Virus record (IMG/VR): IMGVR_UViG_3300043447_000220
Coordinates: 1 to 39,501 of that record
From: a virus
Lineage: Duplodnaviria > Caudoviricetes
Length of the DNA stretch: 39,501 nucleotides
Reading direction: 5' to 3' (one strand)
Part shown: positions 25,107 to 39,501 of the stretch, in pieces
Layout: the number at the start of each line of letters is the position of its first letter
Position numbering within the stretch: the stretch's first letter is position 1
Position numbers and translations under genes: made by a program
The notes under the pieces: model-generated
Told to the model about the DNA's origin: nothing
The model's input: the letters and a program-made list of their open reading frames with translations, nothing else
Database searches by the model: none

Positions 25107-25138
25107 AAAAGAACGGAGGTCAGGTTGTGACCCCCGTT
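25107..25138 (-). terminator. Terminator-like hairpin upstream of the DNA polymerase gene
   Basis: Minus strand AACGGGGGTCA-CAACC-TGACCTCCGTT-CTTTT. Confidence 0.55.
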
Positions 25139-25156
25139 TGTGTGGGCGATAACGCT
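25136..25156 (-). promoter_or_regulatory. Conserved intergenic motif AGCGTTATCGCCCACACAAAC (putative phage RNAP promoter)
   Basis: Near-identical copies at 28812-28832 and 33047-33067, all intergenic and in the same orientation. Confidence 0.7.
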
Positions 25157-28801: not shown

Positions 28802-28811
28802 AGAACCTCCG

Positions 28812-28832
28812 TTTTGTCTGGGCGATAACGCT
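28812..28832 (-). promoter_or_regulatory. Conserved motif AGCGTTATCGCCCAGACAAAA (putative phage RNAP promoter for the replication cluster)
   Basis: Repeated intergenic motif; precedes the SSB-endonuclease-lysin-primase block. Confidence 0.7.
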
Positions 28833-30582: not shown

Positions 30583-33027
30583 TTAAGCGAAGAAGAATTG
30601 AGAGTCCAAGACCTGATTCAGGTCGAGCTTCCCTTTGGATGGAACCTCAGGCACGTCATCAACAACCTCTAGGGCGTTCTGGCGGTACTGCTCCAGCACA
30701 TCGTTCTCCGTGTACATCTCGACGAAAGCCACGCGAATCAAACGAGCCAAGACAGGGGTGTCTGCGGCGTGTGTGCCGTAGCTGTCGTGAATCATTGCGA
30801 AGTCGTTGATGCCTTCTTTGATTGCTTTGGTGATAGTAATCGTCATTGCCGCAGCGTCCATTGAGTGAACGAAGTTGGGTGACGAGCCTTGCACTGCGCG
30901 GCGCTTGTCCAGTTTCTCCAAGTCAAGCTCGTTGAGCGTTGGCATGATGAGCGTGTTGTCGATGTAGGTCTTGATGCGGCGCTCCTCGACTGAGGGGTAC
31001 TGCTGCTGCACCACGAACCCAGATGGTGAAGTCCAGATGAGTGGGAGGTTGAGCTTTGACACTCGCGCTGCCACGTCTTGAATCCAATCCATTGCCTTGC
31101 GAGCAGACACCACGACTTCGCTGATCGCTTCCCACACGTACCCTGTGAGGTACTGCGAGGGTTTGAACAGGTCTTCGCCCCAAGGTGACTCGTGCCCATC
31201 CTCCATGCGCTCGATGATGTACTCCTCGATGTATGCGCGGCATGAGAACCGCTGCCCACCGTAGGGTACGACCATCACGGGGCGCTTGCAGGTCTTGCGG
31301 CTGATACCGAAGGCAAGCCACTGACGTGCCATCTCTGCATTCTCGCCGCTGCCCTCAGCATCATGCTTCACGTGCTCGATGACACGATTGGCGACGACTT
31401 GGTAGATGTCCTGTGGCTTCTCAAACGGGATGAGGTTGGTGGCAGCACCGCCCACTTCGTCCAGCAGTTGAGCGCTGAAGTGTTGCAAGCCGTTGTTGCT
31501 GCCGTCCATGCCGATGGGCAAGCTTGACATGAAGCCGAAGCCCTCGCGTGTGTACCCTGCCCACTCGAAGCAGAATGCGAGGAACATCCAAGGGTCATCA
31601 GCTTCCAACCACCAGCGGTTCTGCATGGGGTCATCAGCACACGCCACGATGCGGTCAGTGTTCGAGTACACGAACAGTTGGCGGTCAGTGAAGGACACCT
31701 TGTCGTTGCCGAAGCTGTTTGCGCCGTGGATTGCCAGCCAGCCAGCTTGCTCTTCGTTCTCGATGGGCTTGCCCTCAGCGAAGTGAAGCAGTGCCTTCGC
31801 GTAGGAGGTTCCCTGAGGGGACAGGAAGGGCACTACGGCGTACTTACGACCACGGAAGTCCATCTGGTACGGGAAGTAGAACTGGTCGTACTGTGAGAAG
31901 CGTTGAGCCAATTGCAGTGTACGTGCGAACTGGATGCGCTTGCTTTTGATGCGAGCGTTCTGCTGGTGCACACGCGAAGCCATGTGCTTCCATGCGACAA
32001 AGCGCTGGCGCTGGTCATCGGTCATCTCGTCCTTGTCCATGTTTGGGAATGGCGAAGGAGGAATCACGTTGTCGTTGCGCTGCGGCACACCCTTCCAAGG
32101 CTGTCCGCTTTCCCATGCTTGGTTCATCACATCCAAGAGGCGCTTGTTGACCGCCCACTTGGTGCGTTGCAGTGCGTTCACTGCTTCGTACTCCAGAGGC
32201 ATATCGTGGCTACGCATCTCTTCCACGTACTTGCGGTTGTACGTCTTGATGAGCGGCAGGGGGCGCAGGGTGTGGTAGTGGTAGCCGCCACCAGTAGGCT
32301 CAGTCCAATCCTTTGGAGGAACTACAGTAGGCAGAAAGAACGGGGACAGGAGTTCGCCATTGCGATTCACCTTTTCAATCCAATCAAGAGTCTTTTCAGT
32401 TGCAGACACATAGGTCTGACGGTGCTTGCGCCCGTACACCTGAGTCTTGACTTCGATGATACCCGTTTTCGACACCAGCAAATCGATGAGCTTACAGCCC
32501 AAGGACAGCTTGTCGGTCTTGCTCCACGGCTCGTACTCCACGAGCGCTTTCTTGTTCATCGTGTGGATGATTGCGTAGCGTCTGAAGTGACGATTTGAGG
32601 TGCGCTTGGTCACTTCGTTTCGAATGACACGAAACCAAGCTTTCTCTTTCTCTTCGAAGATGGAGAACTTGAACTCGTCCTCCAGTGCGCCGCCAATGGT
32701 CATAGCCACCTTGGTGAGGGAGCTACGGTTGGAGACACCATCGATCACCATCTTCAAGGTCAGGAATGCTGCCTTGTGAGGGTCGAGGCTGTTGAGCATA
32801 GGCGCAGTGAGGTGAGACCTCCCCTTACCGCCTTTGAAAGCGTCTTCTAAGAACTCTTTGATACCGTCTACTACTGCTTCAACTGAGTGTTTCATCAGAG
32901 TAATACCGTATAAGGTACTAGATTCAGACTTACTAGACTTAGCTTTTTCTAAGTTCTTATAGTAAGAATGTACTGTTACGTCTTTCATCTCTTCTTCTAG
33001 AGACTTCTGTTCATCCCATAAGTTCAT
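30583..33027 (-). CDS. Single-subunit DNA-directed RNA polymerase, gp1-like (814 aa)
   Basis: DFRGRKY, motif A DGSNNGLQH, motif B RKTCKRPVMVVPYG, PNFVHSMDA, motif C IHDSYG, C-terminal FFFA. Confidence 0.98.
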   Translation of the reverse strand: MNLWDEQKSLEEEMKDVTVHSYYKNLEKAKSSKSESSTLYGITLMKHSVEAVVDGIKEFLEDAFKGGKGRSHLTAPMLNSLDPHKAAFLTLKMVIDGVSNRSSLTKVAMTIGGALEDEFKFSIFEEKEKAWFRVIRNEVTKRTSNRHFRRYAIIHTMNKKALVEYEPWSKTDKLSLGCKLIDLLVSKTGIIEVKTQVYGRKHRQTYVSATEKTLDWIEKVNRNGELLSPFFLPTVVPPKDWTEPTGGGYHYHTLRPLPLIKTYNRKYVEEMRSHDMPLEYEAVNALQRTKWAVNKRLLDVMNQAWESGQPWKGVPQRNDNVIPPSPFPNMDKDEMTDDQRQRFVAWKHMASRVHQQNARIKSKRIQFARTLQLAQRFSQYDQFYFPYQMDFRGRKYAVVPFLSPQGTSYAKALLHFAEGKPIENEEQAGWLAIHGANSFGNDKVSFTDRQLFVYSNTDRIVACADDPMQNRWWLEADDPWMFLAFCFEWAGYTREGFGFMSSLPIGMDGSNNGLQHFSAQLLDEVGGAATNLIPFEKPQDIYQVVANRVIEHVKHDAEGSGENAEMARQWLAFGISRKTCKRPVMVVPYGGQRFSCRAYIEEYIIERMEDGHESPWGEDLFKPSQYLTGYVWEAISEVVVSARKAMDWIQDVAARVSKLNLPLIWTSPSGFVVQQQYPSVEERRIKTYIDNTLIMPTLNELDLEKLDKRRAVQGSSPNFVHSMDAAAMTITITKAIKEGINDFAMIHDSYGTHAADTPVLARLIRVAFVEMYTENDVLEQYRQNALEVVDDVPEVPSKGKLDLNQVLDSQFFFA

Positions 33028-33046
33028 GTACTCTCCTGTTACTGGG

Positions 33047-33067
33047 GTTTGTCTGGGCGATAACGCT
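33047..33067 (-). promoter_or_regulatory. Conserved motif AGCGTTATCGCCCAGACAAAC directly upstream of the RNAP gene
   Basis: Third copy of the motif, ending about 20 bp before the RNAP ATG. Confidence 0.7.
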
Positions 33068-34816: not shown

Positions 34817-35048
34817 TTGTGCCTCCCAGTTGGAGGAGGCGTTTTAGGCGTAGGAGTCTAATAATCTGTTGACGATGATTTCTGACCCAGATCAGATTTT
34901 TGAAATTTGAAATTTGGAAAGGAGTCAAACTCTGGGGGCAGAAAATAAAGCACCCCCTGTACCCCATGATAGTATTGCCCTCGTAGCCCTAGCGCGAAGC
35001 GCTCACTTGTGGCTGTTGGCGAGCGTAGCGAGCGCCAATCTGGAGCAG

Positions 35049-35079
35049 AAAAAAACCCAAGCCGAAGCTTGGGCTTTTT
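35049..35079 (-). terminator. Intrinsic terminator ending the early cluster (possibly bidirectional)
   Basis: Minus strand CCCAAGC-TTCG-GCTTGGG-TTTTTTT; a T-run also follows the hairpin on the plus strand. Confidence 0.85.
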
Positions 35080-35173
35080 ACTTGCGACGGATCATGTCAA
35101 TGATGCCGAGTGCAAGGAAGATGAAGCATATAATCCAATAGATTATTGTGAAGCCTTGTTTGTCAATGAGCAT
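35078..35173 (-). CDS. Small membrane peptide (31 aa)
   Basis: MLIDKQGFTIIYWIICFIFLALGIIDMIRRK; overlaps the upstream stop. Confidence 0.5.
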   Translation of the reverse strand: MLIDKQGFTIIYWIICFIFLALGIIDMIRRK

Positions 35174-35819
35174 GGTAGGAGATTGTGTGAATCTCCCTGT
35201 TCCAACAAGCGCGGCAGTCTTTGCATTGGTTGCCCTGATACGGAGCGCGGCATTCGAAACCAAGCGGCTCGTTAGTGTGAACCACTGATGAGTGCTTGAA
35301 GCGTCGAGGAGCGCGTTCGCCTATTTGGTGCGCGGATACACGCACAATGAGGTTGTCAGGGAAGTCGCCAAACTTTGCAATGAATTGGTCAATGGTACGG
35401 AACTCACGTGTAGGCAACCAGTGGGTGACCTGAGGTGTGAGTTCAGCAACTTTGACAATTTTGAGCAAGTGACCGAGCGATTGAATGTCGCCGCTGTCGT
35501 GCCATCTGAAGTAGTCATTGCCTGTTGAAGCAATGAGCGAAGCCATTGCGTACTCCCATCGAGGGTCGTCGATAGAAGCAGCGCGACGCTGCATTGCAGC
35601 TTGCACGTTGGGGAACACATAGCGTCCCTTGAGTGCGTAGCACTTAGAGCATACCGAGTTTTCGACGTAGCGCAGCACTGAACCAGTGATGCACATCTTG
35701 GCAGGGATGCTGTAGCCGTGGCACGGCATTTTGCTTGGAGCAGAGAGTGTACCGACAATAGATTCGGCTTGTTTGCGAGTGAAGTGCATAGGCACGATAG
35801 AGATAGACTGTTGCATCAT
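35163..35819 (-). CDS. Gp88-like Cys-rich (radical-SAM-like) phage protein (218 aa)
   Basis: LSAPSKMP..YSIPA..C..G......SVCSKCYA.KG.Y, YFRWHDSGD, HWLPTRE, C-terminal C..QC..CRACW. Confidence 0.75.
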   Translation of the reverse strand: MMQQSISIVPMHFTRKQAESIVGTLSAPSKMPCHGYSIPAKMCITGSVLRYVENSVCSKCYALKGRYVFPNVQAAMQRRAASIDDPRWEYAMASLIASTGNDYFRWHDSGDIQSLGHLLKIVKVAELTPQVTHWLPTREFRTIDQFIAKFGDFPDNLIVRVSAHQIGERAPRRFKHSSVVHTNEPLGFECRAPYQGNQCKDCRACWNREIHTISYHAH

Positions 35820-36013
35820 GCCACCTGCTTGATGCTATAGCCCTCTGGTGCGAGTGCATTCCATACGGAGTAGTCTGGGTCGAGGCGTGAAGCCATGCTA
35901 TGCAGTGCTTGGCGCTGCTCACGACCACGAGTCCATTCGCTGTGGCTGTCGGAGTACTCGAACGTCCAATCGTGACGAGCGAGTGCTGTTTTGTATTGTT
36001 CCATATCTGACAT
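35816..36013 (-). CDS. Early hypothetical protein (65 aa)
   Basis: AGGAG-AACTATC-ATG start; LARHDWTFEYSD motif. Confidence 0.75.
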   Translation of the reverse strand: MSDMEQYKTALARHDWTFEYSDSHSEWTRGREQRQALHSMASRLDPDYSVWNALAPEGYSIKQVA

Positions 36014-36038
36014 GATAGTTCTCCTAGTTGGTTGGTGA

Positions 36039-36260
36039 TTAAGCTACGATTTCTACTTCTGCTTCGGTCTGAATCCAGACGTGAGCACCGCAAGAGAGCG
36101 GTTTATCAGGCGAGTACACGATGGATGACTCGCCATGAATCTTGACTTTGTGTGCATAGGTGTTTGACTTGTAGGTCTTGACTGTGAGCACTGGATTGTT
36201 TTCGCCATTGGCGCGATTGGCTTTGATGACGTGTTGGTTGACGTGAATGATAGTTTTCAT
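36039..36260 (-). CDS. Early hypothetical protein (73 aa)
   Basis: GGAGG RBS; IHVNQHVIKAN...PLSCGAHVWI. Confidence 0.75.
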   Translation of the reverse strand: MKTIIHVNQHVIKANRANGENNPVLTVKTYKSNTYAHKVKIHGESSIVYSPDKPLSCGAHVWIQTEAEVEIVA

Positions 36261-36451
36261 TTGAGTGCCTCCACATCAGCGGTGACCTGAGCGAGCACCG
36301 CATCGCGTGTGCCGCGATAGCCCATATCTTTGAGAATAGCGTACGCTGTACGTCCGCGACTGACGCGCATACCGCGCAGTTCTAAGCGCAATGCGGAGCG
36401 CAGCGTAGCGAGGCGAAATGTGTTGATTTGATCACCGACGAGGACGCTCAT
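36257..36451 (-). CDS. Early hypothetical protein (64 aa)
   Basis: GGAGG RBS; ATGA couplings. Confidence 0.7.
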   Translation of the reverse strand: MSVLVGDQINTFRLATLRSALRLELRGMRVSRGRTAYAILKDMGYRGTRDAVLAQVTADVEALK

Positions 36452-36627
36452 ACAGCCTCCACACGGTACTCACGCTTGATAGCGCGACGGATGATGATCA
36501 TTGTGCCAAATACAGGGTCGTGTAGACCAGAAGCTTTGGCAGCTTTGAGAGTTTTGAAGGTGTGCTCGACACCATCTTGTTTGATAACCCAAACGACACG
36601 TTTGGTAGTTTTTTGCAGATCGTACAT
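36448..36627 (-). CDS. Early hypothetical protein (59 aa)
   Basis: GGAG-AACTATC-ATG at 36627. Confidence 0.7.
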   Translation of the reverse strand: MYDLQKTTKRVVWVIKQDGVEHTFKTLKAAKASGLHDPVFGTMIIIRRAIKREYRVEAV

Positions 36628-36677
36628 GATAGTTCTCCAATGAAGTGACTGAATGGGAGCCGAAGCTCCCGTGAATT

Positions 36678-37052
36678 TTACCACCAAGAATCGTAGTAAA
36701 CCTCTTGACCCGCATTGAGCGCAGTGAGTGCTTTGCCAATGAAGGTGTATGTTTCTTCAATGTCTTCGGGATAGATTTCCTGTGTGCCAAAGAAGAAACC
36801 TTGGCATGGCGTGAGACGATTGAGGATGATGTCCTGTTGCAGGTTGAACAGATCAGCTTTGTGCAGACGCAATGGTTGGCAATTGAAGTCACCAGTGCCA
36901 CCACGACGTTCGAATAGCTGCTGCATCCAGCCATGCAGCGCATTGAATTTACGCCAGTAGGCAATGTCTTCGCGTTCGACACCCTCAGCGATAGAGAGTT
37001 CGGTGTTGTCAGGGTTGTTAGCCACTGCGTATGCGTACATATCGAGACCCAT
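36678..37052 (-). CDS. Conserved phage early protein (MGLDMY...YWRK.N.LHGW...YYDSWW type)
   Basis: AAGGAG-CACTATC-ATG at 37052; recognisable motif pattern. Confidence 0.8.
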   Translation of the reverse strand: MGLDMYAYAVANNPDNTELSIAEGVEREDIAYWRKFNALHGWMQQLFERRGGTGDFNCQPLRLHKADLFNLQQDIILNRLTPCQGFFFGTQEIYPEDIEETYTFIGKALTALNAGQEVYYDSWW

Positions 37053-37063
37053 GATAGTGCTCC

Positions 37064-37348
37064 TTAAGCGTAGGTGATGATTTCGTTGCCGCACTTGAGG
37101 CGTTTGACGTTGCCAGCTTTGAAAGCACGGATGCAGTCGTCTTTGCCGTTGCGGTGGAGCAGATTGTTTTCGAGCACTGGGTAGTGACCGCGAATCATCT
37201 GAGGTGTGTAGAGAGTCTTGCAATTGAGCGTACGCTCGCGACCATCAACAGTGATGAACGTGATGGAGAAGATGCGACCACGTGTGTTACGCAAGAAGAT
37301 GAAGACAGATATGATTTTCTTGATCTGTTCGATACGAGATGAAAACAT
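37064..37348 (-). CDS. Early protein, possible SH3/WYL_2-like fold (94 aa)
   Basis: GRIFSITFITVDGRERTLNC...IRAFK pattern; AAGGA-ACTATC-ATG. Confidence 0.65.
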   Translation of the reverse strand: MFSSRIEQIKKIISVFIFLRNTRGRIFSITFITVDGRERTLNCKTLYTPQMIRGHYPVLENNLLHRNGKDDCIRAFKAGNVKRLKCGNEIITYA

Positions 37349-37376
37349 GATAGTTCCTTAGAAGTAGTTAGTACGA

Positions 37377-37610
37377 TTAAGCATCAACAAAGTCACGAAG
37401 CTTCATTTGTGCTTCGGTGTATTCCAGACGCACCCATTTGTTGTCGATGAGTACGGCTGCAATGTCGTGAGCATAGATAGAACCTGTCTCGGTGTAGTGA
37501 CCTTCGACAGTAGCCATGCGGATGTTGCCTTTGCGATTGTCTTCGATGGTTGCTTCCCAACCGTTGCGAAGGACGATACGCATACCTTTTTTCAAGTCGT
37601 TCGTTTTCAT
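37377..37610 (-). CDS. Early hypothetical protein (77 aa)
   Basis: GAGG RBS; ATGA coupling. Confidence 0.7.
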   Translation of the reverse strand: MKTNDLKKGMRIVLRNGWEATIEDNRKGNIRMATVEGHYTETGSIYAHDIAAVLIDNKWVRLEYTEAQMKLRDFVDA

Positions 37611-37882
37611 TTTGTTTCCTCAGAAGTGAGTTGTTTCTCGATAGCAGCACGTTTGGCTGCGCGTTTGGCAGCTTCGTAGCTGTCGTCGAGAGCAGCTTTG
37701 AAGCTCGACACTTGCAGTGGTTCGTCTTTGGAATAGAAGAACGACTTGCCGTCGTCGTAGTGATAGTCAACCGCAGCTAACTCTGAAGCCATGCCGATGA
37801 AGGCGCGGGTGTCGTCAAGTGTCCAGTGCGAAGGCACTTTGAACTTGGTGTAGCCGATAGAAACAACGATGGATTTGGTCAT
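37607..37882 (-). CDS. Early hypothetical protein (91 aa)
   Basis: AAGGAG RBS. Confidence 0.7.
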   Translation of the reverse strand: MTKSIVVSIGYTKFKVPSHWTLDDTRAFIGMASELAAVDYHYDDGKSFFYSKDEPLQVSSFKAALDDSYEAAKRAAKRAAIEKQLTSEETK

Positions 37883-37886
37883 GGTA

Positions 37887-38057
37887 TTACTCCTTGAAAA
37901 GACCGACGAGCGCTGCTGAGGAAAGAATGCACGAGATGGCAGCGAAGAGCATCAAGGCATTACGATACGGGTTGAAGCCCGTGATCATATCGGTTGCGAA
38001 CCAGAGTCCTGCGATAAACAAGACGACGGCGAGTAAGTCTTTGAGGCGTGTGAACAT
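37887..38057 (-). CDS. Early two-TM membrane protein (56 aa, below the ORF-track cutoff)
   Basis: AGGAG-CTACTATC-ATG; MFTRLKDLLAVVLFIAGLWFATDMITGFNPYRNALMLFAAISCILSSAALVGLFKE. Confidence 0.7.
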   Translation of the reverse strand: MFTRLKDLLAVVLFIAGLWFATDMITGFNPYRNALMLFAAISCILSSAALVGLFKE

Positions 38058-38075
38058 GATAGTAGCTCCTATGGG

Positions 38076-38096
38076 AAAAAAGGCTCAGAGAGCCTT
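38076..38096 (-). terminator. Intrinsic terminator after the first early gene
   Basis: Minus strand AAGGCTC-TCT-GAGCCTT-TTTT; contains the stop codon of the 87-aa gene. Confidence 0.6.
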
Positions 38097-38348
38097 GGAT
38101 GCTGCGCGGTACAGCTTACGCAATGTGTCGCGTTGGGCGATTGCCTCGTCGAGGATCGATTGGAGGTTAGCCACGTAGTCATCGTTCATGTCACGCTCGA
38201 TAGCGGTGTTGAGTTTCTCTTCGAACTCGAACACACGCTCGGCAGATTTCTTGCCCCAGAATTCACAATTTTTCAAAAAGCCAGTGAGCATCACCTTCTT
38301 GGTGAAGTCGTCAGCGCCGTCGATGATAGTCAGGATGTCTTGGTTCAT
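38085..38348 (-). CDS. First early gene, helical hypothetical protein (87 aa)
   Basis: CGGAG RBS, ATG start, own terminator; its 5' end is the target of the long inverted repeat. Confidence 0.75.
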   Translation of the reverse strand: MNQDILTIIDGADDFTKKVMLTGFLKNCEFWGKKSAERVFEFEEKLNTAIERDMNDDYVANLQSILDEAIAQRDTLRKLYRAASKAL

Positions 38349-38654
38349 TTGGAATCTCCGTGTTGGTTAATGTGCCGCGTAGCGGTGGATACCAACTAAA
38401 AACTGAGACAAGCACGGAGCGCAGCGGAGAACAAAAAAGTTTATGAGTAGAGGAGGAGCGAAGCGACGAGCAACGGAAAGTGGAGCGTAGCGGAACGGTA
38501 AAGTTTTTTGTGGTGCTTGGCTTAGTTTTAACGGAGCGCAGCGGAGTGATAGTTGGTATACAGTTTACCACATTAGCCAACACGGAGATTCCATATTAGG
38601 TGAACCAAGACATCCTGACTGTCCGCGCTGATGACTTCGCCAAGAAGGTGTTGC
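38288..38654 (+). promoter_or_regulatory. Long nested imperfect inverted repeat; candidate Frpo-like single-stranded DNA promoter
   Basis: Arms 38288-38374 and 38569-38654; inner stems 38389-38415 with 38513-38559 and 38431-38444 with 38498-38511; GCGNAGC mini-hairpins at the junctions. Confidence 0.6.
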
Positions 38655-39149
38655 GGTGGTCGCACGGCGCAGCGCGTTAGGGATTGAAACCCGAAGGGCT
38701 GAGACACCGTAGGTGGCTCGGTGCGTAGCATGAAAGCCCGACCAAGCGCCGAAGTCATAGCGCCCTAGGCGCATGGCTGAGACCGCGCAGGGAACGCCCA
38801 AAAGAGACAGATGATAGTTGTGGTGTCGGGATGTGTGCAGGAGCGCATAGAGTGAGCATAGAGGCACACTTGAGGTCAGCTTGAGGGTAAGCCAAGGGTG
38901 TGCACGTACAGTGGCGTATTGAGGCTGTGTTTGAGGTTAGTACTTAATGGTATGTCAACGACATCAATGTCGTCGAGTTGAGGATGACTTGAGGTGATAG
39001 TTGAGGATGACCTGAGGTGTACTGAGGTGTGAGCGAAAAAATTGATGGGAAGACAAAGAGACACGAACACTGCGGTGAGCGCGTAGACACTTTAGGAACA
39101 CCTTAGGTATCCTGCGGATGAGATTCACAATCCGATGCGAGGCTATATA

Positions 39150-39191
39150 AATCAATGACTTACGAGTACCTGTGGCGTAGCTTGTGGCATG
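39150..39191 (+). promoter_or_regulatory. IHF consensus site plus second arm-type repeat pair
   Basis: AATCAATGACTTA (perfect WATCAAnnnnTTR) at 39150-39162; TGTGGCGTAGCTTGTGGCATG at 39171-39191, 17/21 identical to the reverse complement of 33083-33103. Confidence 0.65.
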
Positions 39192-39332
39192 ACTAGGGTG
39201 TGTGGAGGTCGGCGAGAGGGAAAGCCCAACGGCATATGGGGGGAAGTTGCGTCCCCGCAATCCGAGGAGGGATTTCATATTTTTGCACCAAATATCGACA
39301 CCCCAGTACACCTGAGGAACACCTGAGGTCTG

Positions 39333-39351
39333 CAATTTGTCAGCGTTATCG
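39333..39351 (+). promoter_or_regulatory. Oppositely oriented partial copy of the conserved motif (CAATTTGTCAGCGTTATCG)
   Basis: 17/19 match to minus-strand CAATTGATCAGCGTTATCG upstream of the RNAP gene; followed by TAGGGAGGG. Confidence 0.55.
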
Positions 39352-39501
39352 TAGGGAGGGGGATACTTAAAGGTATCTAAAGGACAACCTAAAGTGAACC
39401 TATAGGTGTCTATAGTATGTACTGTAAGATAGACGTAGTAGGAGTATCCTATATATCTATTCTATGTAAGTCATCTATAGACACCCTATAGGTAAGCTTT
39501 A

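Follow-up and report, generated by a model that had tools for sequence, protein, structure and literature searches.

The window examined here is the whole stretch of 39,501 nucleotides that makes up virus record IMGVR_UViG_3300043447_000220. Its minus strand carries a T7-like gene set comprising an RNA polymerase, an integrase, a winged-helix regulator, a tRNA and small early genes up to position 38348. The single T7-type RNA polymerase (30583–33027) has ~41% identity to the polymerases of the nearest cultured phages, and the phage encodes its own primase-helicase. No N4-type virion RNA polymerase was found among the large ORFs scanned in this record, which is 95% complete. The phage proteins scanned include no relaxase, none was identified as a nickase, and the gene set is T7-like, not that of a conjugative leading region. 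In a close relative the terminase gene comes just past the equivalent of 39501, which places the structure described below (the rod) ~0.6–1 kb from the left genome end. This end presumably enters the cell first, as in T7, and if so the plus strand is the strand with its 3' end there.

Most sequencing runs that contain the region are freshwater metagenomes, and the runs listed include no RNA data set with it. Nucleotides 38000–39501 have no match in 50,697 phage records; queried separately, 38640–38810 gave three weak matches in phage records. No prophage or chromosomal copy was found in GTDB, either by protein profile or by one inner-rod pattern. Elsewhere in the window, a 20-nt motif occurs in three intergenic copies on the minus strand (33042–33067, 28807–28832 and 25131–25156) and is a candidate promoter of the phage RNA polymerase.

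The first early gene (38085–38348, minus strand) encodes a protein of 87 amino acids predicted to form a helical hairpin (pLDDT 90), for which we found no PHROG or Pfam family, no fold match at E ≤ 0.001 and no Atlas match above threshold. Ten homologues were found, and DNA was obtained for five of them (L001 and L006–L009). The stop codon is overlapped by a hairpin followed by a T run (38076–38096, minus strand), which the preliminary description of this DNA had taken for the gene's own terminator; the hairpin is seen by eye and is conserved with altered loops in all five relatives, although the terminator scan did not list it. Codons 1–20 are 92–95% identical in L006, L008 and L009, compared with 72–76% for codons 21–87.

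A predicted fold of the template strand over the first early gene

The plus strand of 38288–38654 (367 nt) folds with DNA parameters into one rod of −113 kcal/mol (z −18.95; 0 of 100 shuffles as good). The preliminary description had proposed a plus-strand rod of ~370 nt, and the rod is real: its arms are recovered as inverted repeats (38288–38317/38625–38654, 38325–38347/38601–38623, 38347–38374/38569–38596 and 38399–38415/38513–38529). A sliding fold of 300 nt overlooked it because the arms are 307 nt apart. The fold had also been called strand-specific, and the plus strand is indeed favoured, but the minus strand, at −92.4 kcal/mol (z −14.2), also folds far beyond chance, so that the preference is a bias and not exclusive. 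RNA energies give the same preference (−189 for plus vs −155 for minus). Rfam contains no credible family for the rod.

The 5' arm (38288–38374) is the template strand of a 26-nt leader, the RBS and codons 1–20 of the 87-aa gene, and the 3' arm (38569–38654) is a non-coding mirror of the same elements; alignment of gene and mirror bears out the earlier reading of 38569–38654 as an inverted copy of leader, RBS and the first ~20 codons. The mirror was considered as a small ORF and rejected, its frame being broken by a 7-nt deletion in two of five sequences (L008 and L009). Inward from the 5' arm lies the template side of a bubble (38375–38388) with a 4-bp C-GNA-G mini-hairpin at 38375–38385, whose middle loop base is T or A in relatives. 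The 5' side of the inner stems (38389–38415) pairs with 38550–38559 and 38513–38529 to form what are predicted to be a spacer and a −35 duplex, and the apex (38416–38512) holds an A-tract/T-tract stem and three GCGNAGC mini-hairpins. The returning strand carries the candidate −35 hexamer TTGGCT (38517–38522; TTGTCT in L007–L009 and TTGCAA in L006), then a 20-nt loop-out (38530–38549) with one GCGNAGC mini-hairpin, then the candidate −10 region (38559–38568; TACAGT, or GACAGT in L006), of which the first base is paired and the rest is an unpaired bubble.

The window and its four close relatives L006–L009 were treated as one clade of five sequences. Covariation in related phages had been suggested as a check, and it was found: compensatory changes keep the rod in the four relatives, with 19 of 147 consensus pairs changed on both sides across the clade. 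The mirror tracks changes of codon 4 and of the RBS in the clade alignment, and in L006 both spacer stems are replaced while their pairing and the ACAGTT bubble are kept; ACAGTT is invariant in 5/5 sequences. Bulges and bubble stand at fixed places in the relatives. Contigs from eight sequencing runs contain the same compensatory haplotypes together with new wobbles. The pair 38310/38632 is an exception, being disrupted in L007 and six of the eight runs. Inversion joints were absent from these contigs, a search that rare forms would escape.

Changes in the stem also have a direction. Across the 79 pairs of the outer stem, the plus strand shows G.T at 12 positions and A.C at one (p 0.002 vs 1:1), a clade bias that is borderline when set against local composition (p 0.057). 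The preliminary description held that most substitutions were A>G or C>T. In the window these make up 3 of 7, the other 4 being transversions, but none is G>A or T>C, and all transitions are therefore one-way. These observations support a rod that is maintained in evolution and that favours the template strand.

A functionless old inverted duplication, its arms homogenized through template switching or gene conversion and its G.T excess produced by strand-biased mutation, might leave a similar trace. Palindromes can self-correct, and the template strand has a GC skew of +0.11 to +0.26 in the first 4 kb, where cultured relatives are mostly near 0; within the window the plus-strand skew is +0.09 to +0.21 over 35001–39300 vs about 0 elsewhere. 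Such an origin does not fit the inner non-coding part, which is 94% identical where the 3' part of the gene is 72–74% identical (over L006, L008 and L009 the inner part is 81–94% identical), nor the fixed places of bulges and bubble, the constrained stem codons, or the bias of the distant locus L074, which exceeds composition (see below). Conservation thus appears largely to refute a functionless duplication, which we regard as very improbable.

GCGNAGC occurs seven times on the plus strand of 38288–38810 and never on the minus strand; the shuffle mean is 0.44, and none of 2000 shuffles reached seven. The middle base varies in relatives. d(GNA) triloops are described as very stable in DNA, even with two G–C pairs (as reported in PMC3201870), and the mini-hairpins favour a fold formed as DNA in the window clade. 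Two more GCGNAGC mini-hairpins occur on the plus strand at 34990–35080, next to a strong hairpin of terminator type, in a position upstream of the genes for regulator and integrase.

The triloops bear on the alternative that the fold works as RNA, with the hairpin of an antisense plus-strand transcript hiding or releasing the anti-RBS arm, or undergoing RNase III processing. The plus-strand preference of the RNA energies agrees with this, the G.T bias fits antisense–sense RNA equally well, and in distant subfamilies the mirror is retained where neither mini-hairpins nor promoter hexamers were seen. In the window clade, however, GNA triloops whose middle base is free to vary are a mark of DNA, and a source for such a transcript is hard to place: the best plus-strand sigma70 site in 37300–38700 scores only 6.2 bits. 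No copy of the candidate phage promoter lies there either. We consider an RNA function unlikely. A phage-polymerase promoter within the rod was rejected as well, the repeated candidate (33061, 28826, 25150) being without a copy there.

Mirrors in distant subfamilies and a Flavo-1-like neighbour

Mirrors of a first early gene extend beyond the clade. In L001 the mirror is shorter, with a different inner part and a template-strand G.T:A.C count of 2:0. A terminase search yielded 80 loci, 46 of them with ≥1.5 kb after the gene; eight loci were folded and read by eye. Nested G.T-biased repeats were found in 4 of the 46 (L060, L074, L075 and L078); absence elsewhere is weak evidence, as the repeat scan overlooked the short mirror of L062. 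L074, L075 and L078 have 75% terminase identity and a first gene of 131 amino acids, whose protein shows a weak alignment to the 87-aa family (hhalign E 2e-5, probability 77). At L074:7730–8740, and likewise in L075 and L078, a degenerate non-coding mirror covers the entire 131-aa gene and its terminator. Template-strand G.T outnumbers A.C by 39:3, 40:3 and 38:3 in L074, L075 and L078, a near-identical trio that counts as one case, and the bias of L074 persists after composition is allowed for (p 3e-6 to 1e-5). In L140, which represents a third protein subfamily, the mirror runs from −22 to +15 (3:0; alignment score 45, where 20 shuffles reached 38 at most), and the template strand again folds better (−175 vs −153).

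Template-strand pairing of RBS and start codon is the feature common to all four subfamilies. The −35/−10 pair in the register of the window was not seen by eye in L001, L074 or L140. There is no mini-hairpin cluster in L074 after the terminase or in the genome of L001, and the region of L140 that was folded lacks GCGNAGC; the DNA signature is limited to the window clade and does not cover the distant subfamilies. Judged by this distribution, the mirror appears older than the promoter-like core. Eight cultured T7-like relatives contain no comparable rod. In the early region of Desulfovibrio phage ProddE (L023:1090–1202), a perfect 25-bp inverted repeat without strand bias lies over a promoter-like sequence, and in L123, 1.8–2.6 kb after the terminase, a perfect ~19-bp palindrome stands in three operator-like copies before early genes. 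Even if the promoter reading developed below should fail, a co-evolving mirror of the first early gene in four subfamilies is an unexplained control element.

Next to the rod, at 38672–38802 on the plus strand, lies a structured element (element B) that resembles Flavo-1 and is supported by plasmid matches and an HMM. By blastn it matches 532 plasmid records, 422 of them conjugative. The preliminary description had proposed a search for similarity to plasmid leading regions, and the outcome is divided: element B matches plasmids, but in the 72,556 plasmids searched nothing resembles the rod in sequence, Frpo/ssi included. In an IncN plasmid three copies were read, all on the strand that is presumably transferred and each preceding a leading-region gene of the opposite strand. 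A pattern scan found 31 viral loci with element B. Neighbouring genes encode ArdC, ArdA, RadC, methylase, G2P-type Rep and terminase, the element lying upstream of those for ArdC, ArdA, RadC and methylase; 36 of the 59 neighbouring proteins scanned have no family.

Flavo-1 figures in PMC2864571 as a Bacteroidetes RNA with no assigned function, and its matches are reported to fall independently of transcribed regions (PMC9723704). Element B has the conserved base helix and flanks of Flavo-1 members. Of nine loci scanned with Rfam Flavo-1 (RF01705), two match and one, L036, a copy of the same pattern, is above threshold (51.6 bits). The window copy, unlike these, has a branched insert and gives no RF01705 match, falling below the gathering threshold. 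With an HMM built on 23 copies at 20 other loci, the window copy is detected (E 8e-10) and so are copies in L006–L009, but there is no match in L001, L074, L078, L140 or the eight cultured phages. Judging by the contexts collected here, members of the Flavo-1 'RNA' family may function in the form of single-stranded DNA. For example, L014:1480–1580 has a Flavo-1-like element on the coding strand of a contig judged microvirus-like from its proteins by eye, where it may be the complementary-strand signal.

Fold-backs accompany such elements elsewhere. Six records of 5–9 kb (L034, L042, L045, L048, L049 and L059) carry a Flavo-1-like element together with a 20-bp fold-back at the start of a ~330-aa gene, on its template strand; in L034 and L048 the gene belongs to the G2P-type Rep family, and gene, fold-back and element follow one another in the same order as in the window. 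In the IncN leading region L002:5720–6110, a small ORF and a Flavo-1-like copy are separated by a fold-back that has GCGAAGC loops and no annotation.

Rod, mirrors, mini-hairpins and element B together point to folded template-strand DNA. In one alternative to a promoter, rod and element B would be signals on single-stranded DNA at the leading end, a priming site that restores the second strand or a replication roadblock that delays it, with gene expression secondary. Frpo transcripts can prime, and F ssp2 blocks complementary-strand synthesis, according to the preprint bioRxiv 10.64898/2026.01.09.698686; element B occurs in the microvirus-like contig and beside G2P-type Rep genes, and the strand evidence is the same as for a promoter. 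A role in priming or blocking does not account for a mirror that, in all four subfamilies, spans RBS and start codon, and the phage has a primase-helicase of its own; we think it improbable as the main function.

The rod as a proposed promoter on single-stranded DNA

In the candidate hexamers, TTGGCT (38517–38522) and TACAGT (38559–38564) are 36 nt apart in the linear strand and 16 after 38530–38549 loops out, with an unpaired bubble at 38560–38568. The sequence thus has the geometry previously described for it, namely the 36-nt gap, the 16-bp folded spacer and the bubble. As had also been stated, the ordinary duplex in the same register reads TTGTCT-N16-TCCACC, scores 0.8 bits and has no usable −10. 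The −35/−10/bubble geometry is kept in 5/5 clade members. Scored with an E. coli weight table, the fold promoters reach 6.2 bits in the window, 6.7 in L007–L009 and 4.8 in L006. Across 22 segments of 900 nt, the highest score arising by chance is 4.9–9.4 bits; the fold promoters lie within this background, and the hexamers alone therefore prove little. The argument for a promoter rests on geometry: a paired first base, the invariant A and T unpaired, and a template mini-hairpin opposite. Fork junctions of this kind favour polymerase binding.

Fold, covariation, strand bias, mini-hairpins and the neighbouring element B are shown by the sequence analysis. Our preferred reading of them, to which we give a probability of roughly 0.45, is that the rod is a Frpo-like single-stranded DNA promoter of the first gene and is backed up by a lock on the translation of read-through RNA. 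Host RNA polymerase would use the rod as a promoter when the plus strand is single-stranded. The 3' arm would stand in as the non-template strand, offering a paired −35, a spacer of 16–17 bp and a pre-opened −10 that the template-side mini-hairpin would keep open, with transcription predicted to start near 38371–38372. The mirror past the start would serve as downstream duplex for the polymerase, and its re-closing would free the RBS of the new mRNA. In the ordinary duplex the gene would be off twice, as there is no −10 in the register and read-through RNA would hide its own RBS. The Frpo-like proposal of the preliminary description thus gains from the evolved fold, the template-strand bias, the DNA mini-hairpins and the adjoining element B, and loses from background-level scores, the lack of plasmid homology and hexamers that were not seen in distant subfamilies.

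The second of these controls could be the whole function. Read-through RNA from an upstream duplex promoter might pair over RBS and start codon. The best ordinary sigma70-like site upstream (38811–38839, minus strand; TGCACA-17-TATCAT, its −35 not conserved) outscores the fold promoters at 8.6 bits. The unpaired probability from RBS to AUG is 0.09 on an RNA from 38803 and 0.55 on one from 38372, and read-through RNA would therefore be translationally shut. That the mirror always covers RBS and AUG, and that the minus-strand fold has a z of −14, also agree with a translational lock alone. Yet the wobbles gather on the other strand, 39:3 in the case of L074, and so weaken the RNA fold of the lock instead of tuning it; a lock as the sole function seems quite improbable; it can act beside the single-stranded DNA promoter.

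Frpo was reportedly the subject of a study by Masai and Arai in 1997. Promoters that act on single-stranded DNA have been described in conjugative elements, whose DNA is single-stranded on entry. The Frpo/ssp elements of F and other conjugative leading regions, as outlined in PMC11541004 and bioRxiv 10.64898/2026.01.09.698686, resemble the rod in having a long imperfect template-strand stem directly upstream of a gene, a −35 and −10 built only on folding (predicted here) and, in element B, a neighbour of leading-region type. They differ from it in sequence, with no similarity detectable, and in setting, the rod being found in a tailed T7-like phage without a relaxase or known single-stranded stage; its mirror also reaches past the start to codon 20, and in L074 takes in the entire gene. 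The phage element would work like Frpo yet is not classed as a member, because it lacks the homology and the conjugative setting.

The hairpin promoters of the N4 virion RNA polymerase are likewise short template-strand hairpins with a 3-nt loop just upstream of the start, here the predicted one; the phage differs in that the scan of its large ORFs turned up no virion polymerase of N4 type and that the middle base of the loop varies. The literature search, which covered subscription journals thinly, found no description of a single-stranded DNA promoter, a fold-back or a nicked early region in T7-like phages. A single-stranded state is not expected in a double-stranded T7-like phage. If the promoter works, the leading end of a 'double-stranded' genome would be programmed to become single-stranded, or the phage would sense attack there.

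ACTATCA and a possible source of a single strand

The weakest step of the proposed mechanism is how the leading end would become single-stranded, possibly by removal of the coding strand through resection or through loss of pieces between nicks at ACTATCA. In the window, ACTATCA is found 16:0 and CTATCA 17:0 in favour of the minus (coding) strand, a pattern noted for 34967–39001. CTATCA is the most enriched hexamer of the last 4.3 kb, with 12 sites spaced 150–430 nt apart. Minus-strand ACTATCA sites lie inside the 5' arm (38324–38330), at the end of the loop-out (38547–38553; absent in L006), upstream of element B (38812–38818) and nearest the genome end (38995–39001). In three whole mirror-bearing records the counts are 10:0, 10:0 and 20:0 (G001, G002 and G003), densest near the end, whereas two control records have two sites and one. 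CTATCA stands at 8–12:0 in L006–L009, L060, L074, L078 and L140 and at 2:0 in the short L001, compared with 0–2 sites in the eight cultured phages and 0–5 on either strand in 34 other terminase loci (near-duplicates left out). A reversed-pattern control is void because ACTATCA reads the same backwards, and many heptamers reach 14:0 through coding bias. Six of the 12 early sites in the window lie directly before a start codon; in L074 one of eight has TG next. ACTATCA is a candidate nick site, Chi-like site or translation-start tag.

ACTATCA is similar to the sites at which some phages are nicked, and the single strand might arise from it. In phage tf the top strand carries 14 nicks, 11 of them in the left half, at a consensus confined to one strand, and their function is described as unknown (PMC3517423). 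Nicks are also present in some Autographiviridae (10.1101/619015). As outlined in these two sources, the nicks of tf and of LUZ24-like, phiKMV-like and T5 phages also use a short one-strand motif dense in the left part of the genome, and the LUZ24/PaP3 site has the core ACTAT in common with ACTATCA. In contrast, the nicks reported for phiKMV-like phages are in the non-coding strand, unlike ACTATCA in the coding strand (PMC3517423; 10.1101/619015). Differences further lie in the ACTATCA sequence, in its greater density (12 sites per 4.3 kb) and in its frequent position over start codons, all of this for a site that is a candidate from sequence. Its one-strand distribution may connect it, in a way open to testing, with phage nicks, to which PMC3517423 assigns no known function.

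Nicks would be insufficient by themselves, since the duplex (about −516 kcal/mol) far outweighs the rod (−113), and a helicase or exonuclease would be needed. The coding strand of the early genes is G-poor at two-fold third-position sites (0.62 A vs 0.42–0.45; p 2e-5); together with the GC skew described above, this may reflect deamination of an exposed plus strand, or codon choice. The fuller scenario, in which a temperate T7-like clade has its coding strand cut at ACTATCA every 150–430 nt over the first 4 kb and removed once the DNA has entered, the template folds, host polymerase fires the first gene in the manner of conjugative plasmids and element B directs restoration of the second strand, is speculative and in our judgement rather unlikely as a whole.

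Two further sequences lie toward the genome end. Positions 39150–39162, among short repeats of the CCTNAGG type, fit the IHF consensus and are conserved in the six clade members, and near 39345 there is a partial copy of the candidate phage-polymerase motif in the opposite orientation.
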